Positions 41 through 36,550 of a stretch of 64,000 bases of DNA are shown in pieces. The notes under the pieces are model-generated. The model ran no database searches and had not been told where the DNA came from. It saw only the letters and a list, made by a program, of their open reading frames with translations. Source of the stretch: Phycisphaerae bacterium (GTDB lineage: Bacteria; Planctomycetota; Phycisphaerae; WQYP01). Every line of letters starts with the position of its first letter. Position 1 is the first letter of the stretch. The translations under genes were made by a program, and so were the position numbers. The stretch is from the NCBI GenBank assembly GCA_035545015.1, contig DASZZD010000032.1, positions 1 to 64,000 of the forward strand, read 5' to 3'.

Positions 41-829
41 ATGCAGGATGTTGTGCGATTAACGCGGGAGTTGCGGGCGGGGGTGGAGACGGGGAAGGAG
101 GGGGTGCGCGGGAATGGGTTTGCGGGGAATCCGGGGTTGGAGGGGTTGGGGGTGTTTGTGTTGTTGCGGGCGACGGTGCGCGGGCGGGTGGATGGGCGGA
201 CGGGGATGCTGGTGAATATCAAGGAAGTGGATCGGGTATTGCGCGGGGCGGGGGTGGAGCGGTTGCGGGAGGGGCTCGAGCGGGGGGAGGGGGCGGCGCG
301 GGTGGCGGAGGGGATTTTTGGGGTGGTGCGGGAGGGGCTTTTGCCGCACGAGGTGGAGCGGCTGGAGTTGTGGGTGAGTCCTTATTTGGGTTTCGCGGTT
401 GATGCAAAGGAGGCGGGCGTGGTGCGGGTGAGTTTACGGTTTGAATTTTCGGCAGCGCATCGGTTGCACTCGGCGGCGCTGAGCGCGGAGGAGAATCGGC
501 AGGTGTTCGGGCGGTGCAACAATCCGAACGGGCATGGGCATAATTATGAGCTGGAGGTGACGGTGGCGGGGAAGCCGGACGAGCGCGGGCAGGTGGTGTC
601 GATCGAGGCGTTGCAACGGGCGGTGAACGAGCGGGTGATCGACGTGTTCGATCACAAGCATTTGAATATGGATTGCGAGGAGTTTCGGGAGGCGGGAGGG
701 GTGAATCCGACGGTGGAGAACATTGCGCGGGTGATCTGGGGGCGGCTGGCGGGGCAGCTGCCGGGGAAACTGGCGCGGGTGAGGTTGTGGGAGACGCCCA
801 AGACGGTGTGCGAGTATGAGGGAGAGTGA
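41..829 (+). CDS. queD: 6-carboxy-5,6,7,8-tetrahydropterin synthase (QueD/PTPS family) with about 126 aa N-terminal extension
   Basis: C-terminal 136 aa carry the PTPS/QueD motifs FEFSAAHRL, CNNPNGHGHNYELEV and DHKHLNMD. G-ending codon periodicity continues in frame from 41, which argues the upstream part is coding. A strong internal start candidate is GTG at 419 preceded by AAGGAGG (407-413). Confidence 0.8.
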   Translation: MQDVVRLTRELRAGVETGKEGVRGNGFAGNPGLEGLGVFVLLRATVRGRVDGRTGMLVNIKEVDRVLRGAGVERLREGLERGEGAARVAEGIFGVVREGLLPHEVERLELWVSPYLGFAVDAKEAGVVRVSLRFEFSAAHRLHSAALSAEENRQVFGRCNNPNGHGHNYELEVTVAGKPDERGQVVSIEALQRAVNERVIDVFDHKHLNMDCEEFREAGGVNPTVENIARVIWGRLAGQLPGKLARVRLWETPKTVCEYEGE

Positions 830-845
830 GGGGTTCAGTTGGGGG

Positions 846-869
846 ATTGGTTCAATTGGTTAAATTGGG
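846..869. repeat. short tandem heptamer/octamer repeat (GATTGGT TCAATTGG TTAAATTGG) flanked by G-runs
   Basis: Direct inspection. Belongs to the AATTGG/GGTAATT heptamer repeat family seen at other loci. Confidence 0.5.
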
Positions 870-949
870 GGGGGCACGGGCGGTGAAAGGGAGCGGGGGC
901 GGCGGCGTCTTGAGGGTGGGCGATAGGGCTTCTTGGCGGATGTGGTGCG

Positions 950-3355
950 ATGGCGACGGATATTGAGCAGATTCAGTTGTATGCCCGGACGCGGGATGCG
1001 GGGGCGTTTGCGGCGCTGATGGCGGCGTACACGGACATGGTGTTCGCCACGTGCCTGCGGATCCTGGCGAATCGCTCGGAGGCGGAGGACGCGACGCAGG
1101 AATGTTTCTGGCGGCTGGCGCGGGAATCGGCGGGGATACGGACGTCGGTGGGGGCGTGGCTGCATCGGTGTGCGACGAATGAATGCATCACGCGGAAGCG
1201 GCGGAAGACGGCCAAGGCGCAGCGTGAATTGGCGTATGAGCGCACGCGGCAGGCGGAGCGGGAGGAGGCGTCGGAATGGCGGGAGGTATCGCCGGCGGTG
1301 GATGAGGCGCTGGAGGAGTTGCCGGAGGAATTGCGGACGCTGTTGATCGGACATTTTTTGCAGCGGCGGACGCAGGCGGAACTGGCGGCGGAGATAGGGG
1401 TATCTCCGGCGACGATGTCGCGGCGGCTGGCGGAGGGCGTGGAGCTGATTCGCAAGCGGCTCAAGGCGCGCGGGGTGATCGCGACGGCGGCGGTGTTGAC
1501 GGTGTTCCTGGCGGAGCGGACGGCGAGCGCGGCGACGCCGGCGGTGGTGGCGGGGTTGGGGAAGATGGCGCTGGCGGGCCCGCCGGCGCATGCGCTGCGA
1601 TGGACGCTGCGGGCGAAGGTGGCGCTGGCGGGAGCGACGGTGGCGGTGGCGGCGGGATTGGTGTGGGGCGGGGAGGCGTATCGGCATCGGCATGGGCGCG
1701 GGGAAGCGGCGGCGGGAGCGGCGGTGGCGCGGGCAAGCGATGGGAAGGTGGAGGCGGGGACGTCGATGACGGAGCCGGACATGCGTGCGCCGGCGGAGGC
1801 GTACACGTTGCTGGCGCGGATTCGCAATGGATTGCCGGAGGTGGCGGGGGATGATCCGCTGGGGGCGGCGCGGGAACTGGCGGCGCTGGGGCCGACGGCG
1901 ACACCGGCGGTGGCGGCGGAACTGGATCGGTCGACGCGCGAGGATGAGCAGCGGGTGTTGATCTGGGTGATGCGGGTGATGGGGGATCGGGCGGCGGTGC
2001 CGGCGCTGTTGCGGGCGATGCCGCGGTTATCGGGAGATGCGGTGGCGTATGAGGTGGCGGTGAAGGATGCGGGGTTGCGTGCGTATGTGCGGTCGCACGA
2101 GCCGGCGGGGGTGATCGGATTTGCGGCGCCGGCGGTGGGGTTGCAGCCGGCGCGGGTGGAATGCGTGGCGGCGCTGGAGGCGTTGACGGGGCAGCGGGCG
2201 GTGTACACGGTGGAGCGCGGGGTGCGGCGGCCGGTGGCGGACGTGTGGGTGGCGTGGTATGCGGCGCATGGGGACGGCGGATCGGCGCAAGACGCGCTGT
2301 CGGCGCCGGCGGCGAAGGATGATCCGGTGGGGGTGGCGGGCGAGCAGGCGCTGGGAGCGCTGTTTCCGGCGGGGCCGCAGGTGCGGTTGACGGAGGTGCG
2401 CGAGGTGGTGCTCGATGCGCGCGCGGGTTGGAATGCGCAGGCGTATGTGGATCTGGATACGGGGGCGCGGCTGGAGCGGAACCAGGGGTGGGTGGATCAC
2501 GGCCAGCATTCCAACGCGGATTGGCCGCGAGAGGCGGGAGTGGATTTGGCAGTGGAGAGCGCTGGCGGAGCGGTGCGGGTGCGAAGTCTTGGGATGCGGG
2601 TGTGGCCGATTGAAAATGAGCGGTTCGAGACGTTTCCCGCGGAAGTGCATTTGAATGGGTCGGTGGACATGGGGGATGCGGGGCCGGTGGCATTGCGGGA
2701 GACGCTGGGGGCGGAGGCGCGGACGTATTTGTTCACGACGCGCGAAGGCGGACGCGGGGTGATGCAGGCGGCGCTGGTGAGCGAGGCGGCAGGTCCGGCG
2801 GTGCGGGTGCGGTATCGGTTGTTCGAGGGCGGAAGCGTGGCGCGGGCGCCGCTGGCGGGAAAGTTTGGCGCCCCCCTACCGGCGGCGGCGACGCGGATGG
2901 CGGGGCAGTTTGCGCCGGAGCGGGAAGTGGAATTGGGCAGCGGGCGTGTGGAACAATCGATGGCGTTGGATGTGGATACCGGGGCGCTGCGTGCGGATGC
3001 GCCGGATGCGGATGCGGGGGAGCTGACGGAGGCGAAGGTGCGGTGGCTGCGGGAATGGGGCGGCGACCTGGTGGTGTTGCCGGCGCCGGCGGAACATGAA
3101 TCGGCGGTGGCGGCGGATCGGCTGGTGGCGCTGCCGGTGACGGCGGACGCGTGGGAGAAGATGCAGCCGGGTGAGGCGGCGACGCTTTTGCTGCGGCGGG
3201 ATTCGTCGGTGGATGCGACCCAGGCGATGCTGCACGTGGGGGCGGGGCAGGTGGAGACGTGGGTGTTCCAGACGCGCGAGGGATGTGCGGGGCTGATGCA
3301 GGTGGAAGGCGAGGGAGCGGGGGGGGTTCGGGTGAGGTATAAGGTGCTGCGGTGA
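950..3355 (+). CDS. ECF sigma-70 factor fused to a transmembrane segment and a large extracytoplasmic domain with an internal tandem duplicated module
   Basis: N-terminus has sigma-70 region 2 (DMVFATCLRILANRSEAEDATQECFWRLA) and region 4 HTH (LPEELRTLLIGHFLQRRTQAELAAEIGVSPATMSRRL). Hydrophobic helices lie at about aa 190-210 and 243-262. The C-terminal region holds two copies of a module (..TYLFTTREGGRGVMQ..VRVRYRL and ..ETWVFQTREGCAGLMQ..VRVRYKVL). Codons are G-ending. Confidence 0.8.
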   Translation: MATDIEQIQLYARTRDAGAFAALMAAYTDMVFATCLRILANRSEAEDATQECFWRLARESAGIRTSVGAWLHRCATNECITRKRRKTAKAQRELAYERTRQAEREEASEWREVSPAVDEALEELPEELRTLLIGHFLQRRTQAELAAEIGVSPATMSRRLAEGVELIRKRLKARGVIATAAVLTVFLAERTASAATPAVVAGLGKMALAGPPAHALRWTLRAKVALAGATVAVAAGLVWGGEAYRHRHGRGEAAAGAAVARASDGKVEAGTSMTEPDMRAPAEAYTLLARIRNGLPEVAGDDPLGAARELAALGPTATPAVAAELDRSTREDEQRVLIWVMRVMGDRAAVPALLRAMPRLSGDAVAYEVAVKDAGLRAYVRSHEPAGVIGFAAPAVGLQPARVECVAALEALTGQRAVYTVERGVRRPVADVWVAWYAAHGDGGSAQDALSAPAAKDDPVGVAGEQALGALFPAGPQVRLTEVREVVLDARAGWNAQAYVDLDTGARLERNQGWVDHGQHSNADWPREAGVDLAVESAGGAVRVRSLGMRVWPIENERFETFPAEVHLNGSVDMGDAGPVALRETLGAEARTYLFTTREGGRGVMQAALVSEAAGPAVRVRYRLFEGGSVARAPLAGKFGAPLPAAATRMAGQFAPEREVELGSGRVEQSMALDVDTGALRADAPDADAGELTEAKVRWLREWGGDLVVLPAPAEHESAVAADRLVALPVTADAWEKMQPGEAATLLLRRDSSVDATQAMLHVGAGQVETWVFQTREGCAGLMQVEGEGAGGVRVRYKVLR

Positions 3356-3783
3356 AGGTTATGAAGGCCAAGCAAAGGGCGGGGCGTATTGGGGGCGAAT
3401 ACCTGCGGCTGGTGAAGCGGCTTCCGCTGCGCGTGATCCGGAACGAGCGGGAGTTGGATGCGGCGAGCGAGGTAGCGCTGGAATTGGCGGGGAAAGGCGA
3501 GGATCACCTGTCGGAAGGGGAATTGGAGTATCTGGAGGTACTGGACCGGTTGATTGAGGAGTATGAGGAGCGAGTGCACGCGATGCCGGTGAGTGCCGCG
3601 AATCCGCTGGAACGGCTGCGGTGGCAGGTGCGGGAAGCGGGGATGAATGCGTCGGATTTGGGACGGCTTCTTGGGAATCGAAGTTTGGGATCGCTGCTGC
3701 TGTCGGGGCGGCGGGAGATGTCGAAAGCGCACATTCGGGCGCTCGCGGGGCATTTTCGGGTGGAGGCGGGGTATTTTCTCTGA
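3352..3783 (+). CDS. HigA-like HTH (XRE family) antitoxin/transcriptional regulator
   Basis: C-terminal HTH (MNASDLGRLLGNRSLGSLLLSGRREMSKAHIRALAGHF) matches the HigA architecture. The GTG start overlaps the stop of the upstream sigma-fusion gene in GTGA (translational coupling). Alternative ATG at 3361 with a GAAGG SD. Confidence 0.65.
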   Translation: MKVMKAKQRAGRIGGEYLRLVKRLPLRVIRNERELDAASEVALELAGKGEDHLSEGELEYLEVLDRLIEEYEERVHAMPVSAANPLERLRWQVREAGMNASDLGRLLGNRSLGSLLLSGRREMSKAHIRALAGHFRVEAGYFL

Positions 3784-3793
3784 CGATCGGCGA

Positions 3794-4054
3794 TTAACTC
3801 TGGACCAGGCGGTCGTATTCGGCGTGGGTGCCGATCCAGAACCAGGTGATGAGGTCGCCGCTCCGCCGCGCCAGCGCGCGGTAGTTGCTGTTGACGCGCG
3901 CGGACCAAAGTCCCGGACGAAGTTCTTTGAAATGAAGGGAAGGGTGGAAGGGTTCGGCGTGCCAGATGACGAACTTCTCACGGGCTAATTCTTGAATGGG
4001 CGCGGGGAGCCTTGCGAAATGTTCCCAGAAGGAGCGGCGGGTTTTCGAAATCAC
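3794..4054 (-). CDS. type II toxin-antitoxin system RelE/ParE family toxin
   Basis: 86 aa with a C-terminal signature (ITWFWIGTHAEYDRL) typical of ParE/RelE-fold toxins. Overlaps its upstream antitoxin gene by 4 nt. Confidence 0.75.
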   Translation of the reverse strand: MISKTRRSFWEHFARLPAPIQELAREKFVIWHAEPFHPSLHFKELRPGLWSARVNSNYRALARRSGDLITWFWIGTHAEYDRLVQS

Positions 4055-7503: not shown

Positions 7504-7579
7504 ATTGCCCATTTCCAATTGCCCATTGCCGATTGGAGGGTTCACAATCGGCAATGGGCATTGGGCAGTTGGCAATGGG
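7504..7579. repeat. long imperfect palindrome built from two inverted clusters of heptamers (ATTGCCC / GGGCAAT family) between ppiB 3' end and the upstream gene
   Basis: ATTGCCC ATTTCCA ATTGCCC ATTGCCG ATTGG, spacer agggttcaca, then CAATCGG CAATGGG CATTGGG CAGTTGG CAATGGG. Confidence 0.6.
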
Positions 7580-8757: not shown

Positions 8758-11172
8758 TTAGCGGTGAGGGGAGAGGTGGGCGAGGACGAGGCGGATCTGG
8801 TCGAAGGGGACGGTTTCGTTGAGGGCGAGAAAGAGGGGCTTGAGGTGGTCGGTGCCGTGCTCTTTAGCGGCAATGGCGACCTGCTGGTAAACGGTGTCGG
8901 AGACCCACGGGGCGATCGTTTTGGGGTGGGTGTCGGTAATGAACTCGCAGAGATATTCGATGACGGTGGAGCGGGCGCGGGTAATGTGCTGGGAGACTTC
9001 GTCGATGGATGCGCCCTGGCGGAACATAGTGAAGGACTGCTCTTTGAAAGGGTTCGGGCGCGGCAGGTTGGCGCGTGCGGGGGGCGTTGCGGGTTTGGGC
9101 GGGCGGGTGAGGATGTCGGTTTCGAGGTTGCGGGCTTTGGCGTGGTCGGTGATGAAGGGGACGAATTTGGGGCCGAGGTCGTTGAGTTTGTTTTCGCCAA
9201 TGCCATAAATGAGGCGGAAATTCTGCATGGTGGTGGGGCGGACGCGGGCGAGTTCGCGGAGGGTGGCATCGGAGAAGATGACGTAGGGCGGGACGCTGCG
9301 TTCGTGGGCGATGTCTTTTCTCAGCGCGCGCAGGGCATCGAAAAGTTCGTGATCGACGCCTTCCCAGGAGATTTCTTCGCCGCGGGTTTTGCGGGCCTGC
9401 TCGGCAGATTTGCGGACGATCTGGACGAGCTTGACCTGGCGCTGGCCTTTGAGGACCTCGATGGAATTGCGATTGAGTTTGAGGATGGGCGCGGAATGGC
9501 CAGAGGAGAGGATGAGGGATTCCTGGTTGAGTGCGCCCTGGCCGATGAGCTGGTAGATGTAGTCGCGGAGCTCGGGCTTGGGGAGTTCGCGGAGGAGGCC
9601 GAAGGTGGGGAGCTGGTCGTGATGGAGCTGGCGGATGCGTTCGATATTTTCGCCGCGGAGGATGGAGATGATGTGGCCGATGCCGAAGCGTTGGTCGGTG
9701 CGTGCGACGGCGGAGAGGATTTTCTGGGCGAGAGTGGTGGCGTCGGGGACAGGGGTGGTGTCGCCGAGGCAGATGTCGCAGGCGTGGCAGCCAGTGGTCA
9801 GTGCTGAGTGGTCAGTGGTCAGTGGAGCCCCACCCCCCCCACCGGCGGGGTCTTCTGACAACTGACTACTGACCACGGGCGACTCATACTTTTGGCCGAA
9901 GTATTCGACGAGGGACTGGTGGCGGCAGGTGGCGCCGCGGGCGAAGCGGTCCATGTCGTCGATGTGTTTGAGGGCGGAGGGGACAAAGGCGGGATCGATG
10001 GCGGTGCCGGCGCGGGCGGCTTCGGCGGCGGATTTTTCGATGAGGGATTTCCAGGAGATGGCATCCTGCGCGGAATAGAGCAGGACGCATTCAGCTTCGA
10101 GGCCGTCGCGGCCGGCGCGGCCGGTCTCCTGCTGGTAGGCTTCGATGGATTTGGGCATGGCGGTGTGGAGTACGAAGCGGATGTTGGAGCGGTCGATGCC
10201 CATGCCGAAGGCGATGGTGGCGACGATGAGGTCGCAGTCTTCCTCGATGAAGGCTTCCTGCGTCTTGCGGCGGAGGTCTGGGGTCATGCCGGCGTGATAG
10301 CCCATGACTTTGCGGCCGAGCGATGCGGTTTTGGCGAGGGTTTGGGAGATTTCGTCGACGTCGCGGCGGCGCATGCAGTAGATGATGCCGGCCTCATTTT
10401 TGTGGCGTTCGAGGACGTCGTGGATTTGGGCGAAGATGTCGCGTCGGGGGAGGATGCGGTAAGTGAGGTTGGGGCGGTCGAAGTTGCCGACGAGAATTTC
10501 GGGGTCCTGGAGGCTGAGCTGGCGGGCGATGTCGGAGCGGACCTGGGTGGTGGCGGTGGCGGTGAAGGCGTGAACGGAGGCGCCGGGGAAGATTTCCTTG
10601 AGGTGGGAAAGCTGGCGGTATTCGGGGCGGAAATCGTGGCCCCAGTGGCTGATGCAGTGGGCTTCATCGATGGCGAAAGTTTTGACGCCGGCGTCGCGGA
10701 GAAGATCGTGGAAATAATTCGATTCCACCCCCCCACCGTTTGCGCCGGTGGCGACGCCGGCCATGAGGCGTTCGGGGGACATGAAGAGCATGTGGAGGCG
10801 GCCGTTGCGGAGGTCGGCGGCGACCTGGCGGCGTTCGTCGGTGGAGAGGGAGGAATCGAGCTGCGCGGCGGCGATGCCGAGGGAGCGGAGGGAATCGACC
10901 TGGTCTTTCATGAGGGCGATGAGGGGGGAGATGACGACGGTGGGGCCGAGGCCGTGGGTGGAGCGGAAGAGCGCGGGCGCCTGGTAGCAGAGGGATTTTC
11001 CGCCGCCGGTGGGGAGCACGACGAGGGAATCGCGACCGGCAAGCATGGCCTGCATGGCGGGCTGCTGAAGCGGGCGGAGGGTGCGGTATCCCCAGGTTTT
11101 TTCGATGAGTGCAAGGAGCTGAGGAAGAGGCCCGTCGACGGGGATATTTTGCGGTTCCACCGCGGTGGTCAT
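8758..11172 (-). CDS. recQ: ATP-dependent DNA helicase RecQ (with C-terminal HRDC plus extra winged-helix-like extension)
   Basis: Helicase motifs LVVLPTGGGKSLCYQ, FAIDEAHCISHWGHDFRPEY, zinc-binding CHACDICLG. Core start ATG at 11172 (MTTAVEPQNIP). The frame stays open upstream to an SD+ATG at 11685, giving a possible 170 aa Pro-rich N-terminal extension. Confidence 0.9.
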   Translation of the reverse strand: MTTAVEPQNIPVDGPLPQLLALIEKTWGYRTLRPLQQPAMQAMLAGRDSLVVLPTGGGKSLCYQAPALFRSTHGLGPTVVISPLIALMKDQVDSLRSLGIAAAQLDSSLSTDERRQVAADLRNGRLHMLFMSPERLMAGVATGANGGGVESNYFHDLLRDAGVKTFAIDEAHCISHWGHDFRPEYRQLSHLKEIFPGASVHAFTATATTQVRSDIARQLSLQDPEILVGNFDRPNLTYRILPRRDIFAQIHDVLERHKNEAGIIYCMRRRDVDEISQTLAKTASLGRKVMGYHAGMTPDLRRKTQEAFIEEDCDLIVATIAFGMGIDRSNIRFVLHTAMPKSIEAYQQETGRAGRDGLEAECVLLYSAQDAISWKSLIEKSAAEAARAGTAIDPAFVPSALKHIDDMDRFARGATCRHQSLVEYFGQKYESPVVSSQLSEDPAGGGGGAPLTTDHSALTTGCHACDICLGDTTPVPDATTLAQKILSAVARTDQRFGIGHIISILRGENIERIRQLHHDQLPTFGLLRELPKPELRDYIYQLIGQGALNQESLILSSGHSAPILKLNRNSIEVLKGQRQVKLVQIVRKSAEQARKTRGEEISWEGVDHELFDALRALRKDIAHERSVPPYVIFSDATLRELARVRPTTMQNFRLIYGIGENKLNDLGPKFVPFITDHAKARNLETDILTRPPKPATPPARANLPRPNPFKEQSFTMFRQGASIDEVSQHITRARSTVIEYLCEFITDTHPKTIAPWVSDTVYQQVAIAAKEHGTDHLKPLFLALNETVPFDQIRLVLAHLSPHR
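9792..9876. repeat. 84-85 bp heptamer-repeat palindromic element inserted in-frame within recQ (zinc-binding subdomain loop)
   Basis: CAGTGGT CAGTGCT GAGTGGT CAGTGGT CAGTGGA, a 29-nt G/C spacer, then the inverted TGACAAC TGACTAC TGACCAC. Encodes about 28 extra aa (SPVVSSQLSEDPAGGGGGAPLTTDHSALTTG) between EYFGQKYE and CHACDIC. Confidence 0.7.
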
Positions 11173-11432
11173 GGGGGAATCTCCGGAATGGAGAGTTATT
11201 TTAGCTGAGTGGGCGAGGCGGAGCGAGTTGAAAGTGAGGAAGGCGAGGAGGGATAAAGCGAGAAGGGCAAATGGCAAATGATGGCGGCGGGGGGAGGGGG
11301 CGCGCGGAGCGGGCGAGGGGGCGGGTGCGAGCGGGGGCACAGTGGATCCAGGGGGCGGAGCCCCTGGGCTTGAGTGGGAAGGAGGGAGGAGGTTGGCGAA
11401 GGCGGGGAGTTGGGTGGTGGGGAGCCAGCGCG

Positions 11433-11497
11433 GCGGGATGGCGGTGTGGGTTTGGAGGGGGACGTATGGCCAGAGCGCCAAGAGCGCCTGGGTTTTT
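11433..11497 (-). repeat. copy A of a conserved about 65 bp core repeat (extended similarity about 11270-11690) in the recQ 5' region, containing palindrome GGCGCtcttgGCGCC
   Basis: Reverse complement aligns at about 85-90% with 21521-21585 upstream of putA (aaaaacNNNggcgctcttggcgcYctggccatacNtNcccYtccaaNNccacaccgccaNcccgc). In frame it encodes ALLALWPYVPLQTHTA versus ALLAPWPYLPFQLHTA. Confidence 0.7.
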
Positions 11498-11636
11498 GGG
11501 GTTGGGTGGGCGCGGGCGGGTTTTGGGGAGTGGGATGGTGTTGGCGTGGCGATGAGGAGGGGGCGGAGGGAGGGGGGGCGTTTTGTGGCGGGAGGGGCGG
11601 TGGGATCGGTGGGTTCGGGCACGGGCGAGGCGTGGG

Positions 11637-11666
11637 GTAATTGGTAACTGGTAACTGGTAATTGGG
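11637..11666. repeat. tandem heptamers GGTAATT GGTAACT GGTAACT GGTAATT in the recQ leader / N-terminal extension
   Basis: Direct inspection. 30 nt, in frame (QLPVTSYQLP on the minus strand). Confidence 0.6.
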
Positions 11667-11946
11667 CGGCGGCGGCGGTGGTCATAGGCTTCTCCCTTTT
11701 GTCGGTTCCTCTGAAAGAGAGAACGTAAGGGGGGGCGGAAAGGTTCCCGAAAGGTTTGGATTTTTTTAGGGTCTGCGGGCGTTGGATGTAAGTGTTTTCA
11801 GGTGATGGGGTTGTGGGTGTAGCGTTTGGCGGATTCCACCGTCTTTCGATGGTCATCAGCGTTCGCCCCTTCCGCGTTTCACAGTGTTGGATGAACGAGC
11901 GTTGCAAGAGCTACGAGAATTCTTCGTTGAGTGAGGTCGTGCGCTG

Positions 11947-12522
11947 ATGCCAGTTCTGGTGCCGGGGGCGCATGTAATTGTGGCATCAAATCCGCTGTTG
12001 TCGCATCGCGTTGCATGGGCACTCGGAGAGGCCGGGTTTGAGAGGCGCGGGGAACTGGCGCGGTTGGTGATGACGATGCGAGGGGGTGACAGGCCGAAGA
12101 ATGCTCACGAGGAATTCAATGGTGTAAGCGTGATGGCTCGTTCGATGTGGGAGCCGTGGCTAATTTTCAGGAAGCCACTTGAGGGACGGGTGCAGGACAA
12201 TTTGAGGAAATGGCGTACGGGGGGGTTGCGTCGTCCCTCGATTGAAAGACCATTTGGGGACGTGATCAAATCGCATCCGACGCGTAAGGAGGAGCGAACA
12301 CTGGCGCCACATCCGAGTTTGAAGCCGCAGGCATTCTTGCGTCAAGTGGTGCGGGGGGTACTGCCGTTGGGTGAAGGGGCGGTGCTGGATCCATTCGCGG
12401 GGTCCGGATCGACGTTGGCGGCTGCGGAGGCAATGGGCTACCGGAGCGTCGGAGTTGAGAAGGACGGCACGTATATTGAGATGGCGCGGCGATCTATTCC
12501 ACGACTGGCGGCGTTTCGATAA
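11947..12522 (+). pseudogene. N-terminally truncated beta-class DNA (N6-adenine/N4-cytosine) methyltransferase fragment
   Basis: Has the beta-class motifs E.WLIFRKP, HP..KP and motif I LDPFAGSGSTLAAAEAMGYRSVGVE, but no DPPY catalytic motif. A stop lies immediately upstream of the ATG. G-ending codon style unlike neighbours. Confidence 0.6.
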
Positions 12523-12558
12523 AACGATATTATTATATTTTCGTGGCCGCCTACCTTT

Positions 12559-13111
12559 CTAATCACCAATACGTTTTATCGGAACTAAAGCCTCAAGAGG
12601 AGCGAGCCCTTTTACAACATTGTCAAACAAACTGGCATCTTCAAGGGAGGAGCTTAACACTATAAGCGAATCTCCTTCATGCTGGCTTTTCGCAAGACGA
12701 TCCTTAATCTCTATCCTCAAGCTGCAAAATCGAATCCCAGCTAGAACATCAGCTTGACGGTAAACAAATCTTGAAACTGCCCATCTCGCATAGACTGCGC
12801 TGCCGTTCGCCGCCGCAAATGTCAAGTAATTATCATCCCACCCAATGCGCAGGCCTTTTGGGTAATTCGCCTCAGAAACGCTCACTGGGTCGCCTTGACA
12901 GTAGCCCATGTAATCTCGCGGAAGCCAGAGCCTCAAACTTGCCGGAAATTCCATGCAAAGCTCGCCTCTTGAATTCATCACGGCAACGCCTTTCCATTAG
13001 CATAGTACGTGGTTTTCGCTTTAAGAGCGGGGTTGCTTTCAATTGTATATATCTCCCAGTTAGTAGTGTTTCCTCCGACTGGTTTACCATAATAAAGCGG
13101 ATTTTGGTCAA
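12559..13111 (-). pseudogene. frameshifted hypothetical gene in an AT-richer segment (candidate restriction-endonuclease remnant)
   Basis: Two overlapping minus-strand ORFs (13111-12872 and 12981-12559) in different frames within 12523-13130, a stretch clearly lower in GC than the rest of the window. No recognisable motif. Confidence 0.3.
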
Positions 13112-13133
13112 TTCGGCTCTGTAGAAAACCCCG

Positions 13134-13526
13134 TCAGGGGGCGTAAGAAATCATGAGGTTGTGGGTGAGGACCATGAGGCGGAGTTCCTGGTCCTGGGTG
13201 CGGCGGATGCAGGCCGCGACGGACTCGCCCTGGCGGCGTTTGATCATCGAGAAGCCGGTTTCCACCTGCACGCGACGCGTGTAGCCGCAGCGGCGCCGAG
13301 CGAGACTTGCGGTAAGGGTGTCCGAGAGCAGCCCGGACATGATTGCGGGACGTGTCATGTCGTCGAGGCGTTCGAGTCCTTTGCGAAGCAGCAGGGTGTT
13401 TACGTCGTAGAAGAAGTCGTAGACATCCTGCATCGCCATCAAGAAATCCTGGATTCGCAGGTTAAAAGGAAGTTTCAGGGATTTATTGAACCTGGTGGGA
13501 TCAGGCTCATTTCTGGCGATTGGCAT
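13134..13526 (-). mobile_element. IS4/IS5-superfamily transposase C-terminal fragment (IS remnant)
   Basis: C-terminal DDE-transposase signature ...YTRRVQVETGFSMIKRRQGESVAA..RLMVLTHNLMI (E followed by K/R 7 aa later). Only about 130 aa, no N-terminal domain. Confidence 0.55.
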
Positions 13527-14639: not shown

Positions 14640-14667
14640 GAGTGCTCCTTTGCGGAGGCGGAGGGGT

Positions 14668-14779
14668 GGTAATTGGTAATTAGTAATTGGTAATTTGCTG
14701 GCGCATCAATGGGGGCCCCGTTCTCCGGCGACAGCCAATTACCAGTTACCAATTACCAGTTCCCATTACCAATTACCAC
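14668..14779. repeat. paired inverted clusters of GGTAATT heptamers (4 units, 39-nt spacer, 6 inverted units) between pilB2 3' end and the lipoprotein gene start
   Basis: GGTAATT GGTAATT AGTAATT GGTAATT and the inverted CAATTAC CAGTTAC CAATTAC CAGTTCC CATTACC AATTACC. Confidence 0.65.
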
Positions 14780-20467: not shown

Positions 20468-20509
20468 CCTGCCGGATTCAGCCCCCCTGCCGATCGCAAC
20501 GTGGATCGC

Positions 20510-21160
20510 TTATTTGGCGGCGCTGAAGAGTTCGGCGGCGCGTTTCCAGTTGACCACTTCCCAGATGGCGGCGAGGTAATCGGGACGTTTGTTCTGGTAC
20601 TTGAGGTAATAGGCGTGTTCCCACACGTCGACGCCAAGGACGGGGGTCCCGTGCGCTGCGCCGGTGGGGGCGAGGACGTTTTCGGGCATGATGGGGTTGT
20701 CCTGGTTGGCGGTGGAGGTGATGGCGAGACCGCCGCCATTTTTGACGATCAGCCATGCCCAGCCGCTGCCGAAGCGTTTGCCGCCGGCTTCCTGGAACTT
20801 GGTTTTGAAGTCGGCGAAGGAACCGAAGGCGGATTTGATGGCCTCGGCGAGGGGGCCTGAGGGTTCACCGCCGCCACCATTGTTTTTGGGGGCCAGAAGC
20901 GTCCAGAAGAGCGAGTGGTTGACATGCCCGCCGCCGTTGTTGCGGACAGCGCCGCGGACGTCTTCGGGAACTGTGCCGAGATTCCGGATCAGTTCTTCGG
21001 CCGATTTGTTGGCCAGGTCGGGCTTGGAGGCGACGGCGTTGTTGAAATTGTTGACATAGGCCTGATGGTGCTTGCCATGGTGAATCTGCATGGTGGTGGC
21101 ATCGATGACCGGTTCGAGAGCGGAGGGTTCGTACGGCAGCGGCGGGAGGGTGGCAGGCAT
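20510..21160 (-). CDS. sodA: Fe/Mn superoxide dismutase
   Basis: [33 protein letters not shown]...[11 protein letters not shown]...[23 protein letters not shown] at 21160 ([10 protein letters not shown]). Confidence 0.93.
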
Positions 21161-21370
21161 GATCAATCCCCACGAAAAGACGGGTAAACCGCGCCCCAAA
21201 GGCAGGCCGTCGCGCGACGGCCCCGGGGTTTGGGGCGGAAGGTTGGTTATAGGAGCAGCGCGGCGGTGCGGTCAAGCGATGCGGGTGCAGGTGGGCACGG
21301 GGATTCTGTGGCAGATGACGGCAGTTGCCGCCGCAAAACGCGGCCGCCCCCCTACAACCCAATTTTTCCG

Positions 21371-21399
21371 TTGCATGTAAGCATTATGTTAGGTATAAT
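21371..21399 (+). promoter_or_regulatory. sigma70-type promoter TTGCAT-N17-TATAAT upstream of putA
   Basis: ttgcatGTAAGCATTATGTTAGGtataat in an AT-rich patch. An SD GGGAGAAGG and ATG 21426 follow within about 25 nt. Confidence 0.6.
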
Positions 21400-21425
21400 A
21401 CCTACCGCTCGCTGGGAGAAGGAAC

Positions 21426-24400
21426 ATGCCGACCACCCCCCCGTATCCCCCCCGTCCAACCTCCAGCCCTCCCACCCGCACCGCTCCCCCCGCGCCCAAC
21501 GCCTCTCCCACCCCCCCTGGCAAAAACGTGGCGCTCTTGGCGCCCTGGCCATACCTGCCCTTCCAACTCCACACCGCCAGCCCGCTGGCCACCACCGCCT
21601 CCCCACCGCGCCCCCCAAAGCCCGCTGCCTCCTACAATGACCCCAGACGCCCCCACAGAGGCCCCCCCATGCAACGCCACACCGCCACATCAGCCCCCCC
21701 CACCCCCCCCACCCCCCCCGCCGCCCACGCCCCCGCCCTCGAAGCCCGCACCCAATCCCTCGGCCGCGAACTCCTCGCCGCCTCCCGCGCCTCCCCAGCC
21801 TCCTCCCTCTCCAAAAAATTCTGGTCCGACAAACTCCTCGCCTTTGCCCTCCAAAATGAGCGCTTCAAAAACGAACTCTTCCGCTTCATCGATGTTTTCC
21901 CCGCCCTGCGCACGCCCGCGGCCATCAATCAGCATCTCCACGAGTATCTTCTCCGGCCGGATCTGTCGCTTCCCGCCGGCCTCTCGCTGGCGCTCAAGGC
22001 CGGCAACCTGCTCAAAGGCGCGCAAGCCTCCGCCCTCACCGCCCAGGTTCAATCCATGGCCCGTACGTTCATCGCCGGCCAAACGCTTGATGACGCATTG
22101 CCCGCCCTTGCCGCGCGCTGGGCGGAAGGAATTGCCTTCTCCGTGGACCTCCTGGGGGAAGCGGTCGTCTCGCACGCCGAGGCCCACGCATACCGCGCCC
22201 GCTACGATCAACTTCTAGACGCGCTTCCCAGCGCCGTCGCCGCCTGGCCGGCCAACCCGCTGCTCGACTCCGATCACCTTGGCCCCATCCCGCGCGCCAA
22301 CGTCTCGATCAAAATCTCCGCCCTCGACGGCCGCGTCACCCCAATCGATGCGGACGTTCCCGGCGGCACGCTGGACCGTCTCACCGAAGCGCTGGCCCCG
22401 CTGCTGGAAAAAGCCGCTCGCCACAACGTCCTCATCAACTTCGATATGGAAAGACACGCCCTGCACGAGCTCACGCTGCGCCTGTTCAAGCGCTGCTGCG
22501 AGCGTTTCGACTTTCCCGCAGGCCTTGCGCTCCAGTCCTATCTGAGGTCCGTTCACGAGGACGCCTCCGATCTCATCGCCTGGTCCAAGCGGCTCAATCG
22601 CCGCGTCACCGTGCGCCTGATCAAAGGCGCTTATTGGGATTACGAAACCATCCACGCACAAATGATGAACTGGCCCGCGCCGGTCTGGCCCCGCAAGCAT
22701 CTCACCGACGCCGCTTTTGAAAACACCGCGGCGCTTTTCCTGCGGAATACGCCGAACCGCGCCGGCGAGGGCGGCATCACCTTGGCTGTCGGCACGCACA
22801 ACGTGCGCTCCGTCGCCCGCACGCTCGCCCTCGCGGAACACTTCGATCTCCCGCCCAATGCCGTGGAATTTCAGGCGCTGCGCGGCATGGCCGACGATCT
22901 CAAACACGCGCTCGCGGCGCGTAAGCTGCGTGTCCGTGAATACGTTCCACTCGGCGACCTGATCCCCGGCATGGCCTACCTGGTGCGCCGGCTCTTGGAA
23001 AACACGTCCAACACCGGCTGGCTGCACGCGGACACAACTAGCGCCCCCGCCGAACAACTCCTCGCCTCGCCGCACATCGAGCAACCTGCCGCGATGCTCG
23101 AGGATTCACCCGCAAAACGAAGCAGTTTCCGCAATGAGCCGCTTCGCAATTTTTCACTGGCGCAGGTCCGCGGCGCATTTATGGAGGCGATTGCCGGCGC
23201 CGCTCTCCCGCGCGTCGAAAACAACACCACGCTGGAGACCGCCCAGCACATGGTGCGTTCCGCCACCGAAGCCTTCCCCGCCTGGCGCGACACCCCGGTC
23301 GACCAGCGCGCCGCCATCATCGAAGCGGCGGCGGATCGCCTGTCGAATGTCCGTGACACGCTGGCCGCAATGATCGTCAAGGAATCCCACAAAACCTGGC
23401 CCGAAGCCGACGCCGACGTCTGCGAAGCCATCGACTTCTGCCGCTACTACGCCCTCCACGCCCGCCTCCTGCAAAACCCCCACCGCACCGGCCCCGCCCT
23501 CACCGGCGAACGCAACGAGCTCCGCCACATTCCCCGCGGCCCCACCGCCGTCATCGCACCCTGGAACTTCCCCCTCTCCATCGCCACCGGCATGACCGTC
23601 GCCGCCCTCGTCACCGGCAACCCCGTCATCCTCAAACCCGCCGAGCAAACCCCCGCCATCGCCGCCGCCCTCGCCCACCACCTCCACGCCGCCGGCATCC
23701 CCAAAAACGTCCTCCACTTCTGCCCCGCCCCGGGCGAAACCGTCGGCGCCGCCCTCGTCCGCCACCCCCTCATCACCACCATCGCCTTCACCGGCTCCAA
23801 AACCGTCGGCCTCGATATCCTCCGCGCCGCCGCCGACACGCCCCCCGATGCGCCCTTCATCAAGCGCGTCGTCTGCGAAATGGGCGGTAAAAACGCCATG
23901 ATCGTCGACGACACCGCCGACCTCGACGACGCCGTCCTCGCCGTCCGCCACTCCGCCTTCTCCTACGCCGGCCAGAAATGCTCCGCCGGCTCGCGCCTGA
24001 TCCTCCTCGATTCCATCCACGACGCCTTCCTCGCCCGCCTCATCGAATCCACCCGCGCCCTTATCCTCGGCGACCCCCAAAACCCCTCCACCGACCTCGG
24101 CCCCGTCATCGACGCCGAAGCCGCCAATAAAATCCGCCGCTACATCGACATCGGCAAACAAGAAGCCACCCTCGCCTACCCGGACGATGACGCTGCCGAA
24201 ATCGAAAATCGAAAATTGAAAATTGAAAATGCGATTCCCCCTCACATCTTCACTAACGTCCCCGCCGACAGCCGACTCGCCACCGACGAAATCTTCGGCC
24301 CCGTCCTCGCCGTCCTCCGCGCCAAAGACTTCCCCCACGCCCTCCACCTCGCCAACCTCTCCGCCTACAAACTCACCGGCGGCCTCTTCTCCCGCACCCC

Positions 24401-24629
24401 CTCCCACATCGCCGCCGCCCGCAATCACTTCCTCGTCGGCAACCTCTACATCAACCGCTCCATCACCGGTGCCCTCGTCGAACGCCAGCCCTTCGGCGGC
24501 TTCGGCCTCTCCGGCGCAGGCTCCAAAGCCGGCGGACCCCACTACCTCCTCCACTTCACAGACCCCCAGGCCACCTCCGAATCCACCCTCCGCCACGGCT
24601 TCGCACCGGAGGTCACTTCAGATGACTGA
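21426..24629 (+). CDS. putA: bifunctional proline dehydrogenase / delta-1-pyrroline-5-carboxylate dehydrogenase PutA (with 81 aa Pro-rich N-terminal extension)
   Basis: PRODH arm/barrel region and aldehyde dehydrogenase motifs (VIAPWNFPLSIATGM, FTGSKTVG, CEMGGKNAMIV, GQKCSAGSRLIL). ATG 21426 has a strong SD and the promoter just upstream. Conventional core start ATG 21669 (MQRHT...). Confidence 0.9.
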   Translation: MPTTPPYPPRPTSSPPTRTAPPAPNASPTPPGKNVALLAPWPYLPFQLHTASPLATTASPPRPPKPAASYNDPRRPHRGPPMQRHTATSAPPTPPTPPAAHAPALEARTQSLGRELLAASRASPASSLSKKFWSDKLLAFALQNERFKNELFRFIDVFPALRTPAAINQHLHEYLLRPDLSLPAGLSLALKAGNLLKGAQASALTAQVQSMARTFIAGQTLDDALPALAARWAEGIAFSVDLLGEAVVSHAEAHAYRARYDQLLDALPSAVAAWPANPLLDSDHLGPIPRANVSIKISALDGRVTPIDADVPGGTLDRLTEALAPLLEKAARHNVLINFDMERHALHELTLRLFKRCCERFDFPAGLALQSYLRSVHEDASDLIAWSKRLNRRVTVRLIKGAYWDYETIHAQMMNWPAPVWPRKHLTDAAFENTAALFLRNTPNRAGEGGITLAVGTHNVRSVARTLALAEHFDLPPNAVEFQALRGMADDLKHALAARKLRVREYVPLGDLIPGMAYLVRRLLENTSNTGWLHADTTSAPAEQLLASPHIEQPAAMLEDSPAKRSSFRNEPLRNFSLAQVRGAFMEAIAGAALPRVENNTTLETAQHMVRSATEAFPAWRDTPVDQRAAIIEAAADRLSNVRDTLAAMIVKESHKTWPEADADVCEAIDFCRYYALHARLLQNPHRTGPALTGERNELRHIPRGPTAVIAPWNFPLSIATGMTVAALVTGNPVILKPAEQTPAIAAALAHHLHAAGIPKNVLHFCPAPGETVGAALVRHPLITTIAFTGSKTVGLDILRAAADTPPDAPFIKRVVCEMGGKNAMIVDDTADLDDAVLAVRHSAFSYAGQKCSAGSRLILLDSIHDAFLARLIESTRALILGDPQNPSTDLGPVIDAEAANKIRRYIDIGKQEATLAYPDDDAAEIENRKLKIENAIPPHIFTNVPADSRLATDEIFGPVLAVLRAKDFPHALHLANLSAYKLTGGLFSRTPSHIAAARNHFLVGNLYINRSITGALVERQPFGGFGLSGAGSKAGGPHYLLHFTDPQATSESTLRHGFAPEVTSDD
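21521..21585 (+). repeat. copy B of the conserved core repeat shared with the recQ 5' region (inverted orientation relative to copy A)
   Basis: See copy A (11433-11497). C-rich on the sense strand. Encodes ALLAPWPYLPFQLHTA within the PutA N-terminal extension. Confidence 0.7.
24198..24231. repeat. tandem heptamers GAAATC GAAAATC GAAAATT GAAAATT GAAAATG inserted in-frame in putA
   Basis: Encodes EIENRKLKIEN within the P5CDH domain. Low-GC patch inside an otherwise C3-rich gene. Confidence 0.6.
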
Positions 24630-34072: not shown

Positions 34073-36550
34073 ATGGGTAGTGGGTCAGCGATGCATCCGG
34101 GGGCGGGAGACGGAGGGAGCGGAGGCGAGGCGGAGGGGGGCGGGAGGCGGGCGGCCAACAGGCTTATCGAATCGACCAGTCCGTATCTGTTGCAGCACGC
34201 GCACAATCCGGTGGACTGGTATCCCTGGGGGGAGGAGGCGTTCGCCAAAGCGCGGGCGGAGGGGAAGCCGATCTTTTTGTCGATCGGGTATTCGGCGTGC
34301 CACTGGTGTCACGTGATGGAGCGGGAGGTGTTCGAGAAGCCGGCGATTGCGGAGGTGATGAACGCGCATTTCGTGAACATCAAGGTGGACCGTGAAGAGC
34401 GGCCGGACGTGGATGACGTGTACATGCTGGCGACGCAACTGATGACCGGGAGCGGGGGTTGGCCGATGAGCGTGTGGCTGACGCCGGAGTTGAAGCCGTT
34501 TTACGCGGGGACCTATTTTCCGCCGGAGGATGGGGCGCATGGGAGGCCGGGGTTTGTGCGGCTGGAAAAGGCGCTGGCGGAGGCGTGGGCGAATCGGCGG
34601 GGGGAATTGCTGGAGCAGGCCCGGCGCGTGGCGGAGGCGGTGCATATCCACGCGGATGAAGGCGGGGGAGCGGGGGCGGGGCCTGTGGACATGGCGGCGT
34701 GGGCGGTGAAGGGATTGGAGGAATTCGCGGATCGGTTTGATGAGGCGCACGGCGGGCTGGGCGGCGCGCCCAAGTTTCCGCCGCACCAGGCGCTGGCGCT
34801 CTGGCTCACGATGCTGCGCCATCCCAACGCGGCGCAGTTGTCGCAGGAAGAGGTGGCGGCGGTCGAGATGATGGTCGCCGGCACGCTCGACGGCATGATG
34901 AACGGCGGGATTTACGATCAGGTCGGCGGGGGCTTCGCACGCTATTCCACCGACGAGAAATGGCTGGTGCCGCACTTTGAAAAGATGCTCTACGACAACG
35001 CGCAGCTCGCCGCCGTGTATGGGCTGGCGGCGGCACACTTCGGGCGCGGCGATTATGCCCGCGTGGCGCGGCAGACGCTCGATTTCTGGCTGCGCGAGAT
35101 GACCGGCGAACGCGGGGGCGGCGGCGGGTTTTATTCGACGCTGGATGCGGATTCCGAAGGGGCGGAGGGGAAGTTTTATGTGTGGACCGTTGCGGACGTG
35201 CGGGCGGCGCTGGGCGACGGGGCGGGCGGGGATGATGCGGCGCTGATGATGGAGCATTTCGGCGTGACGGAGGCGGGGAATTGGCACGAGTCGCCGGTGC
35301 CGAGCGGGAACGTCTTGAGCGTGGTCAGGGATGTGGAGACGCTGGCGCGGGAACGGGGAGTGAGCGTGGAGGCCATGCGCGGGCGGATCGACGGCCTGCT
35401 GGTGAAGATGCGAGAATGGCGGGCCAGACGCGTGCCGCCCGGGCTGGATGACAAGGTGCTGACAAGCTGGAACGGCCTGATGATCTCGGCGCTGGCGATC
35501 TGCGGGCGCGTGCTGCGCGAGCCGCGCTACCTGGAGGCGGCCCACCGGGGGATGGGGTTTCTGTTGACGGAGCATATGGAAGGGGGACGGCGGTTGCTGC
35601 GGGTGTCGCGGGGGAAAAACACGAAACACGAGACACGAAACACGAAACTGGGGCCGGTCGCCTCGGGCAGTGCGCATACGGACGGGTTTCTGGAGGATCA
35701 CGCCTTCCTGCTCAACGGCATGATGGATCTCATCGAATCCACTACCGCGACCAGCCTCCCGGGTACCATGGCCCGCAAGCGCGCGCTCGAACTGGCCGAC
35801 GTGATGGTGAAGCATTTTGAGGACCCCGAGAAGGGGGCGTTTTTCTTCACCTCCCGGAAGCACGAGGTGCTCTTCGCGCGCATCAAGAACGCGGCCGACA
35901 ACGCGACGCCCTCCGCCAACGGGATGGCCATCCGGGCGCTGCTGCGTCTGGCGGCGGAATCGGGCCGGGAGGAATACCGCGAGAAGGCGCTGCGGGCGGT
36001 CGGGGCGTTCGCGGCCACGATCGGCCGGCGTCCCGATTTCTTTCCGACGATCCTGCAGGCGCTGGTCGAGGACATGGAAGCGCGCACCCGCGGCGTCGGC
36101 GGCGCGCGGGAAACCCTGCCGATCCGCCCGGCCCTCGTCGATGTGGGCCACGGCGCCGGCGGCGGAAGCAAGGTGCTCTCCGTCAACGCCCACGCCGGGA
36201 AGGTGGCCGACGGAAAATTTGAAGTGTTGGTCGAACTCACCCTGGCCGAGGGCTATCACGTCCAGCCGCACCATCCCCAGGACCGCGAAGCCTTCGCCAC
36301 CGTGGCCCGCGTGCGCGGCGACCTGCCCCTGGCCAAACAGGAATGGACTTACCCCGCCGGCGGTGAGGAAGATCACGCCTACGAAGGCAACGTCCGCATG
36401 ATCGGCGCCTGCACCCTCGGCGGCGGAGCGGCGGGGGTGAAGCCCGGAAAATATCCCATGCGCGCCACCGTGCTCGCCCAGCCATGCTCCGGAGCAAGCT
36501 GCCTGGCGCCGGAGAAAGTCAGCGCCGAGTTCGTGGTGGAAGTTCCTTGA
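34073..36550 (+). CDS. thioredoxin-domain protein of the YyaL/DUF255 (SSP411-like, N-acylglucosamine 2-epimerase-like) family
   Basis: [41 protein letters not shown] motifs. The ORF is open from 33851 and the start is uncertain (ATG 34073 or 34091). N-terminal two-thirds G3 codons, C-terminal third C3 codons. Confidence 0.85.
35616..35650. repeat. tandem heptamers AAACACG x4 (+AAACTGG) inserted in frame in the thioredoxin-domain gene
   Basis: gggggAAAAACACGAAACACGAGACACGAAACACGAAACTGGGG encodes [14 protein letters not shown]. Coincides with the switch in codon style. Confidence 0.6.

Follow-up and report, generated by a model that had tools for sequence, protein, structure and literature searches.

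Introduction

Among the leaders through which bacteria tie translation to the expression of a downstream gene, mgtP (of mgtCBR) and mgtL (of mgtA) of Salmonella are leader open reading frames (ORFs) with proline codons, and a related system is coupling of transcription and translation that depends on elongation factor P (EF-P) (PMC3641672, PMC5299641, PMC5021804, PMC12360218). The mgtP and mgtL type comprises short ORFs of about 17-20 codons with a stop of their own, whose selected consecutive proline codons control defined alternative hairpins or a Rho utilization (rut) site. In another group of systems (tnaC, cruR, hisL), translation of an upstream ORF (uORF) gates Rho-dependent termination (PMC12360218). 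In the present study, we analysed the leader of putA in a stretch of 64,000 nucleotides, hereafter the window, from a metagenome-assembled genome (MAG) of a Phycisphaerae bacterium (assembly GCA_035545015.1, contig DASZZD010000032.1, positions 1 to 64,000). The original prediction for this locus was that PutA, a proline-catabolic enzyme, carries a polyproline-rich N-terminal extension that might sense the availability of proline. Alignment with related loci shows that positions 21362-21590 are, by their recurring motifs, one copy of a repeated cassette of promoter and leader.

The putA leader resembles mgtP and mgtL in that it contains an upstream ORF with a Shine-Dalgarno (SD) sequence and proline codons within a long leader, and its translation could affect downstream transcription. 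It differs from them in that the ORFs of the in-frame cassette copies run for 81-171 codons from an upstream ATG (uATG) to the ATG of the gene, have no stop and are usually fused to the gene, while proline occurs at chance frequency and no alternative structures were found. Moreover, leaders of the mgtP/mgtL type would be sought at genes tied to proline or osmotic status, but the cassette precedes recQ, lysA, icd, fba and a membrane-protein gene. Like the uORF-gated Rho attenuators (PMC12360218), the putA leader is long, C-rich, G-poor and unstructured, with an ORF whose translation would shield it; unlike them, it shows no evident stalling peptide, ligand logic or termination point. Rho loads at sites biased towards C over G (PMC13650167). 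Since the whole coding strand of the genome already has more C than G, the putA leader stands out from it only quantitatively.

Materials and Methods

The PutA ortholog set comprised a relative of 96% identity (JGI 3300056388), one of 82% (locus L002) and two of 72-76% (loci L123 and L124). The L002 putA locus is known from two assemblies, with a single-base difference across the locus. Window and L002 were compared over 900 nt of coding sequence (CDS) and over a 142-nt ungapped part of the leader. An exact 20-mer of the conserved core described below was scanned through bacteria and archaea, one genome per species, which matched 116 loci; a match was taken as a real core copy when the 20-mer was accompanied by a second block, CCACACCGCC, and by C-rich surroundings. 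Seven core copies entered the analysis, two in the window (putA and recQ) and five in the sister MAG SMAG_U6078 (putA, icd, lysA, fba and a membrane-protein gene). The nine leaders used for the frame statistics are these seven together with those of lepA in L127 and recQ in L129. Expected numbers of prolines and of proline-proline (PP) dipeptides were taken from mononucleotide shuffles of the 57%-C tract.

Results and Discussion

The region upstream of putA contains the following features, with positions counted in the window.

21371 to 21399, forward strand: promoter-like box P1 (type A), read directly as TTGCAT (21371-76), a 17-nt spacer and TATAAT (21394-99); preceded by AATTTTTCC
21390 to 21404: 7-1-7 palindrome TAGGTATAATACCTA, overlapping the -10 element of P1
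21414 to 21428, forward strand: SD-like GGGAGAAGG (21414-22) followed by the uATG (21426)
21426 to 21668, forward strand: C-rich leader, the supposed proline-rich extension; 81 codons, in frame with putA and stop-free
21500 to 21590, forward strand: conserved core, containing CAAAAAC, GGCGCTCTTGGCGCYCTGGCCAYAC, TCCAA and CCACACCGCCAnCCCGC; 3' end of the shared cassette
21591 to 21668, forward strand: gene-specific proximal region with the -10-like TACAAT (21633-38) and a second SD, AGAGG (21657-61)
21669 to 24629, forward strand: putA CDS as annotated, a bifunctional proline dehydrogenase / pyrroline-5-carboxylate (P5C) dehydrogenase of 986 aa

A second copy of the cassette lies before recQ.

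11173 to 11748, reverse strand: second cassette copy (type B)
11748 to 11722, reverse strand: type B box, GGGAAC-N17-CGTT
11685, reverse strand: upstream ATG, preceded by the SD GGGAGAAG and opening a 513-nt C-rich in-frame leader
11518 to 11414, reverse strand: core of the recQ leader
11203 to 11198, reverse strand: proximal TAAAAT

Between the putA leader and that of RecQ, which is annotated from the ATG at 11172 (HVS71030.1, 804 aa), a block of about 60 nt recurs and the identity is 66% over 299 nt. The exact 20-mer GGCGCTCTTGGCGCYCTGGC occurs twice in the window, once in each leader, against 0.05 occurrences expected. Among the 116 loci matched in public genomes, only five were real copies, all of them in SMAG_U6078, where they precede putA and icd-like, lysA-like, class II fba-like and membrane-protein genes; the other pattern matches lacked both the CCACACCGCC block and the C-rich context. 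A scan of metagenome contigs with the two-block pattern gave four chance matches and no real copy, and an nhmmer profile of the core found no further or weaker copy in the window and all related loci (~190 kb). Thus, among the sequences scanned, the cassette family is found only in the MAG of the window and in SMAG_U6078, both extremely C-skewed. In all seven copies the core is oriented in the sense of the downstream gene and lies in a 5' leader. The suggestion that recQ carries a related module was therefore confirmed, as a cassette copy with the shared core 20-mer, and so was the accompanying reservation that the leader might be generic, given the range of genes before which the module stands.

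Two types of cassette can be told apart by their promoter boxes. Type A (both putA copies and lysA) has TTGnAT-N17-TATAAT, then CCTACCGCTCG and GGGAGAAnGAAyATG, and type B (recQ, icd, fba) has AAAATCCAAA and CGGGAACCTTTCC-N-CGTT, then a GGAGAAG-type SD and an ATG. The whole P1 box is kept in three copies, with about 88% conservation in the putA ortholog (L002:490-520) and before lysA (L089:5515-5545). This box had been taken for a textbook promoter: the two elements and their spacing are indeed present, but the -35 element matches TTGACA at only three of six positions, and for this reason the box was missed by a consensus promoter scan of 20500-22500, which reported no promoter. A G(G)GAGAAG-like motif with an ATG 3-7 nt later is found in six core-bearing leaders of types A and B and in the lepA leader of L127, despite differing surroundings; the leader of L083 has a looser motif, AAGGAAAG, 8 nt before its ATG. 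Type B boxes without a core occur before lepA of the sister MAG and before recQ of a third relative. Three related genomes share a conserved box, AAAATCCAAAnnTTTCCGGGAACCTTTCC-N-CGTTCTC, which stands before recQ, icd, fba and lepA (window 11748-11722, reverse strand; L076:6680, L094:4981, L127:9757, reverse strand; L129:9677). The type B box resembles the GGAAC-N17-CGTT of extracytoplasmic function (ECF) sigma factors, and its gene set would be unusual for a promoter of this kind.

Comparison of the putA and lysA leaders gave 73-75% identity from the transcription start site to the core, 80-82% in the core and 51-52% after it, while the leaders of the putA orthologs remain 77% identical after the core. 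Because the similarity between putA and lysA drops past the core and that between the putA orthologs does not, the core closes the cassette, and the ~80 nt that follow up to 21669 are the proximal region of putA itself. The presence of the cassette varies among relatives. At recQ, the window has both cassette and core, L129 has a cassette that lacks the core, and L127 and L130 have neither; at putA, the cassette is found in the window, in the 96% relative (with the same 508-nt spacer) and in L002, and not in L123 and L124. The cassette loci are rearranged between relatives, and a contig end resembling an insertion sequence (IS) adjoins putA of L002.

Beside the recQ cassette, an insert of lower GC content (0.567) at 11947-13526 separates it from a lipoprotein gene. 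A DNA-methylase-like ORF (11947-12522) lies in this insert, as does a transposase-like fragment (13134-13526), and the otherwise syntenic L129 has no such insert; in the sister MAG, the neighbour of recQ is lepA.

The putA leader (243 nt) contains 57% C and 16% G, and its richness in proline is a by-product of this cytosine content. The proline fraction is 0.33, against 0.335±0.038 in the shuffles, and there are eight PP dipeptides, including PPG and APP contexts, against 8.8±2.8, and no PPP. As both counts equal the expectation from composition, the tract is no more polyproline than chance would make it, and the +1 frame is even richer (proline fraction 0.41, five PPP). Other copies of the leader contain PPP or PPPP. 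Peptides that the leaders would encode, if translated, include NVALLAPWPYLPFQLHTASPLATTASPPRPPK for PutA and TQALLALWPYVPLQTHTAIPPR for RecQ. Two of the three forward frames of the putA tract are stop-free and the third has one stop, so that openness of a frame by itself is no argument for coding. The codon-usage scores per codon in the three frames were -3.97, -4.39 and -4.00 for the leader and -3.54, -4.52 and -4.64 for the CDS; in real genes this likelihood sets the frames apart by 0.9 nat per codon or more, and in the leaders, which have no codon periodicity, the separation does not exceed about 0.5. The coding strands of the genome are extremely C-rich (67% C at third codon positions of CDSs), and because codons mostly end in C, the off-frames are stop-poor and long spurious ORFs lie over real genes. 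The sign of the GC skew in the window follows the orientation of the genes, as can be seen near 21200, where sod and putA diverge; the more distant relatives L123 and L124 show no apparent C-skew in a short stretch around the putA start.

The RNA of the putA leader is predicted to be unstructured (fold z = +0.84, less stable than its shuffles). No alternative stem-loops were found in the leader, with an unfavourable alifold covariation term (+0.89), and no terminator-like site was found in the scan of its sense strand. Rfam 15, searched at permissive thresholds over 21100-21900, gave two chance-level matches only (E 6.6 and 8.2), both on the opposite strand.

These results bear on the proposal that the proline-rich leader is a translational sensor, in which limitation of prolyl-tRNA or EF-P slows ribosomes and tunes PutA, or all genes with a cassette. 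If the leader is translated, ribosomes would meet its eight PP dipeptides, and PPP or PPPP in other copies, and mgtP and mgtL, together with EF-P-dependent coupling, provide precedents (PMC3641672, PMC5299641, PMC5021804, PMC12360218). However, proline and PP occur as composition predicts, the putA copy has no PPP, the positions of PP motifs differ between the putA leaders of the window and L002, the L002 leader is frameshifted and the orthologs in L123 and L124 have no such tract. There is also no short uORF with a stop and there are no alternative hairpins, and the occurrence of the module on recQ, lysA, icd, fba, lepA and a membrane-protein gene refutes the putA-specific form. We consider a sensor of this kind very improbable. 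The prediction had itself named identical extensions on many unrelated genes, without a link to proline, as a finding that would speak against it; with such extensions found, proline at expectation and no sign of selection on the peptide, the idea is not supported.

Selection on the peptide was assessed with the orthologs. The L002 gene keeps the promoter box, SD, uATG and leader, but its uATG is out of frame (251 nt against 243 nt in the window); the frame is broken by a one-base difference just before the putA ATG, which is present in both assemblies. Differences between window and L002 at the three codon positions numbered 11, 11 and 7 in the leader (142 nt) and 39, 16 and 119 in the CDS (900 nt). 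As the substitutions in the leader have no codon-position bias, there is no selection at the peptide level. The core, in turn, is read in frames 2, 2, 0, 2, 2, 1 and 0 across the seven copies. The tract does not behave as a conserved N-terminal domain either, being absent in L123 and L124, frameshifted in L002, without codon bias and without a Pfam match. The check that had been proposed, whether PutA orthologs share the extension, thus gave a divided answer: the leader is kept in L002, but out of frame, and there is no room for it in L123 and L124. Taken together, substitution patterns and reading frames show that the putA leader is neither a selected peptide nor specific to putA. The extension is also dispensable, being frameshifted in L002 putA, with recQ occurring without the cassette in L127 and L130.

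In trifunctional PutA proteins, the ribbon-helix-helix (RHH) domain likewise lies N-terminal to the catalytic core, and the automatic JGI name of the orthologs mentions an RHH repressor. The putA tract is unlike this domain, for it is of low complexity, not conserved and absent from orthologs, and a Pfam search of its 81 residues matched neither RHH nor any other domain. The PutA of the window is of the bifunctional type, not the trifunctional RHH type, with the Pfam order PutA_N (from aa 106), Pro_dh and Aldedh.

The ATG at 21669 is the conserved, canonical start of putA, and the annotation stands. The NCBI record HVS71040.1 of the same MAG has 986 aa and is 100% identical from M82 onward, and JGI and NCBI also begin the orthologs of 96% and 82% identity at the equivalent ATG. 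This start is preceded, at 7 nt, by an SD of its own (AGAGG, 21657-61). In L123 and L124, putA starts at the equivalent Met, 36 nt past ahpC, and an in-frame TGA 12 codons upstream makes an extension impossible there. A proximal motif, CCTCCTAYRAT..GGAGG..ATG, is common to the window and to the leaderless L123 and L124, which marks out 21669 as the ancestral start. GCTAnnAT boxes are found 30-50 nt before the starts of lysA, fba, lepA and recQ. An exact look-up of the window PutA in a contig index, in its short and long forms, gave no match, and the annotated form was found via protein cluster membership.

Some further observations concern the beginning and the body of putA. In the leaderless loci (L123:2975-2995 and L124:2975-2995), the SD lies inside a CCTCC-N11-GGAGG hairpin between ahpC and putA, which is possibly an SD-sequestering element; its counterpart in the window is GCCTC...GAGGC at 21628-21662. 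The right arm of the core, CCACACCGCCA, recurs at 21677-21687, just past the putA start codon, and an array of CCCCCCCCA (4.6 copies, 21694-21738) encodes the variable SAPPTPPTPP of the true PutA N-terminus; L002 conserves neither of them. An AAATCGA heptamer array (24199-24230) encodes EIENRKLKIEN within the P5C dehydrogenase half of the protein. A similar IENRK.K.EN insert is found in the orthologs P0003, P0006 and P0007, and the sequence at this place is unrelated in P0001 and P0002, which marks a hypervariable insertion point in PutA.

The arrangement of the cassettes bears on whether ribosomes also start at the uATG. The pair of SD and ATG is kept under two unrelated promoter types and at variable distance from the promoter, with a looser SD in L083. 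The uATG frame is stop-free in all nine leaders, the +1 frame in six and the +2 frame in one; the joint probability is about 1e-6 in shuffles and, by our estimate, ~2e-4 when the other frames (7/18 open) serve as an empirical null. In six of the seven core copies, the distance from uATG to gene ATG is a multiple of three (243, 255, 513, 339, 342 and 366 nt), although its partition around the core differs modulo 3 (p about 0.007 by a binomial estimate). The uORF of L129 terminates at an ATGA that overlaps the start of recQ. In the window, the ORF 21426..24629 is open without a stop for 1067 codons, 81 of which precede the second ATG at 21669. The translation start had been placed at 21426, a placement that the strong SD, the ATG and the 81 in-frame stop-free codons favour and with which the annotated start at 21669, equipped with its own SD, does not agree. 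The conserved SD and ATG, a frame that is always open and the in-frame position of six of seven copies nevertheless form a credible signal of a ribosome start at 21426, one that should not be dismissed.

On balance, we favour a lineage-specific, portable cassette of promoter and translated leader before putA. The cassette would have been placed there after the gene left an ancestral ahpC-putA arrangement. It would supply the promoter TTGnAT-N17-TATAAT, then an SD with its ATG, some 20 nt past the start of the transcript, a very C-rich, G-poor and unstructured spacer of about 100 nt and the ~90-nt imperfect-palindrome core, and would be joined to the proximal region of putA, with the -10-like TACAAT, the SD AGAGG and the ATG at 21669. 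It is also probable that ribosomes load at 21426 and read in frame into PutA, giving a minor long isoform beside the form from 21669. Because ribosomes would read through the leader, selection would keep the uATG frame open and usually in frame, and would act on the openness and phase of the frame only.

Several results weigh against this reading. The use of P1 and of both start codons (21426 and 21669) is something that we infer. Over all nine leaders, only six are in frame, which is marginal (p about 0.04 by a binomial estimate), and since the leader copies of one type share ancestry, the frame and stop statistics are not fully independent. The out-of-frame runs extend for 409 codons in L002 putA and 367 codons in L127 lepA, so deep that an efficient use of the uATG is hard to reconcile with them. 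Off-frames are generally stop-poor genome-wide, and the gene callers never picked the long form of PutA. A search with the core as peptide (in the ALLALWPYVPLQTHTA frame) of 5.8 billion proteins gave no match, by which no known peptide motif corresponds to the core and the protein databases lack the long forms. Finally, the identity of the leader between species is 77-80%, against 60% at third positions of the CDS; this excess means that the leader is constrained as nucleotides, which a translated spacer leaves unexplained.

A purely untranslated leader would account for part of this. The cassette would then serve as an additional promoter with a cis-regulatory leader, and PutA would be made only from 21669, the purine run and ATG being part of a conserved RNA or DNA element, the frame open through C-richness and the core bound by a protein or RNA. 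In line with it are the conservation above synonymous sites, the lack of codon-position bias and codon periodicity, the core read in three frames, the two out-of-frame leaders that stay stop-free for more than 360 codons, off-frames that are open in the genome generally and annotators who all use the downstream ATG. It would leave unexplained an SD and ATG kept under two promoter types with variable spacing, a uATG frame open in 9/9 leaders against 7/18 for the other frames, the compensating lengths on either side of the core by which 6/7 copies are in frame, and the L129 uORF that stops exactly on the recQ start. For these reasons, we regard an untranslated leader as a real but less probable alternative.

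As for what translation of the cassette leader would serve, ribosomes may cover a C-rich, rut-like leader and so protect transcripts from the upstream promoter against Rho or RNase cutting. The leaders contain 49-57% C and 14-16% G over 243-513 nt (C/G about 3.5) and so offer the at least ~80 nt of C-rich, unstructured RNA of Rho-dependent leaders. We offer this purpose tentatively; any involvement of Rho is purely what we infer and also counts against the favoured reading. A wider scheme is unlikely, namely that cassettes are grafted in frame on putA, recQ, lysA, icd and fba as disposable proline-rich tails which couple protein synthesis to ribosome processivity via EF-P, prolyl-tRNA and Rho, with the core as a recombination or regulatory handle.

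The core at the 3' end of the cassette is an imperfect palindrome of ~90 nt with 13 pairs in three helices. In the pairing model, 96.7% of the cells pair, against at most 61.5% when it is slid, and the single-sequence fold z-scores range from -0.5 to -2.8. In the nhmmer profile of the seven copies, each scores E 1e-19 to 1e-22, and the 20-mer is conserved at 20 of 20 positions across species while the flanks diverge. Variation in the pairs is limited to G-C to G-U; under two helix models, the paired columns are invariant and no compensatory change was seen. Covariation is therefore uninformative as to which strand or molecule folds. The core could serve as a binding site for a regulator (protein or RNA) or as a processing site, or it could form the end at which a mobile cassette recombines.

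Dispersed palindromic elements are known from several bacteria. The Correia elements of Neisseria carry promoters, mycobacterial MIRU ORFs overlap the flanking stop and start codons, and Rickettsia palindromic elements (RPE) insert in frame in genes. Like REP/BIME, Correia, MIRU and RPE, the core is a short (~90 nt) imperfect palindrome with several co-transcribed copies per genome, and, as with RPEs and MIRUs, it lies inside frames that stay open. Unlike these families, it is strictly in sense orientation, occurs in 5' leaders only, belongs to cassettes with two promoter modules and is read in three frames. No similarity to the REP, Correia, MIRU or RPE families was seen, and the core had no Rfam match.

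The core or the cassette may accordingly be considered as a dispersed repeat of the REP, MITE or RPE kind, selfish or driven by recombination, which would spread into 5' regions and be tolerated where the gene stays expressible, that is, in sense, stop-free and often in frame. Several near-identical copies are present at unrelated loci (two in the 64-kb window and at least five in SMAG_U6078), the near-invariant imperfect palindrome is able to form a hairpin, and the core stands at the 3' junction of the shared sequence. The varying presence at recQ and putA, the rearranged loci and the IS-like end by L002 putA also fit. On the other side, all seven copies are in sense and in 5' leaders, with none in 3' or convergent intergenic regions of ~190 kb of related DNA, and no associated transposase was found. 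Terminal inverted repeats and target duplications of core or cassette were not identified, in a search that was neither systematic nor rigorous. The 20 of 20 conservation across species with diverging flanks points to purifying selection or gene conversion. A repeat of this origin therefore seems rather unlikely to us.

The fixed orientation of the core to the genes and its extreme nucleotide invariance would also suit an internal promoter or a transcription factor site, with TGGCGC-N5-GCGCT at the -24/-12 spacing of sigma-54 and TGGCG/CGCCA arms for a dimeric regulator. The sigma-54 element has the consensus TGGCAC-N5-TTGCW, and read against this consensus, GG and GC in the core are 11 nt apart. 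However, the conserved TT is missing from the -12 element, the gene start is anywhere from 138 to 316 nt away, the gene set is implausible as a sigma-54 regulon, and the replacement of G-C by G-U pairs in the outer helix fits folding of the sense strand rather than duplex recognition. We hold such a site to be most improbable.

Two other candidate functions of the core were examined and rejected. Programmed -1 frameshifting at CAAAAAC with the hairpin was dropped, because the length and phase of the A-run vary among copies. An antisense intrinsic terminator (GGCGCCAAGAGCGCC and a T-run), flagged by the scan, has a stem of only 4 bp on the antisense strand in six of seven copies; the stem is short since the C/T variant, a G-U pair on the sense strand, becomes C.A on the antisense strand.

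Other features of the window were recorded in the course of the analysis. Tandem arrays of period 7 with 4-6 copies lie at the following positions.

7504 to 7535
7545 to 7579
9792 to 9825
11636 to 11665
14667 to 14695
14735 to 14778
24199 to 24230
35617 to 35648

Their units are ATTGCCC and its inverse, CAGTGGT, GGTAACT, CCAATTA, AAATCGA and AAACACG, and they are located between genes, within CDSs and within the recQ leader, where the array is read as QLPVTSYQLP. Period-7 arrays also occur at L089:847, 3156 and 3210, and TTACCAATTACC-type arrays recur in the sister MAG. On the reverse strand, 219-3984 (~3.7 kb, 45-51% C) has long, mutually overlapping open stretches of 210-507 codons in each of the three frames; the region either encodes a very large low-complexity protein rich in Pro, Ala and Ser or is non-coding.

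Conclusion

In the present study, we found no evidence for a putA-specific, proline-sensing extension on a proline-catabolic enzyme. What was found is a family of cassettes before unrelated genes of core metabolism and DNA repair, in which the uATG frame is kept open and mostly in frame. For annotation, the locus carries a warning: genomes with C-ending codons yield long, stop-free, proline-rich ORFs in every frame, and these should not be taken for protein features. If the translation of the leaders is true, the cassettes would offer an example of how old genes acquire new promoters and N-terminal tails, and of how a genome with mRNAs that all resemble Rho-loading sites copes with long leaders.

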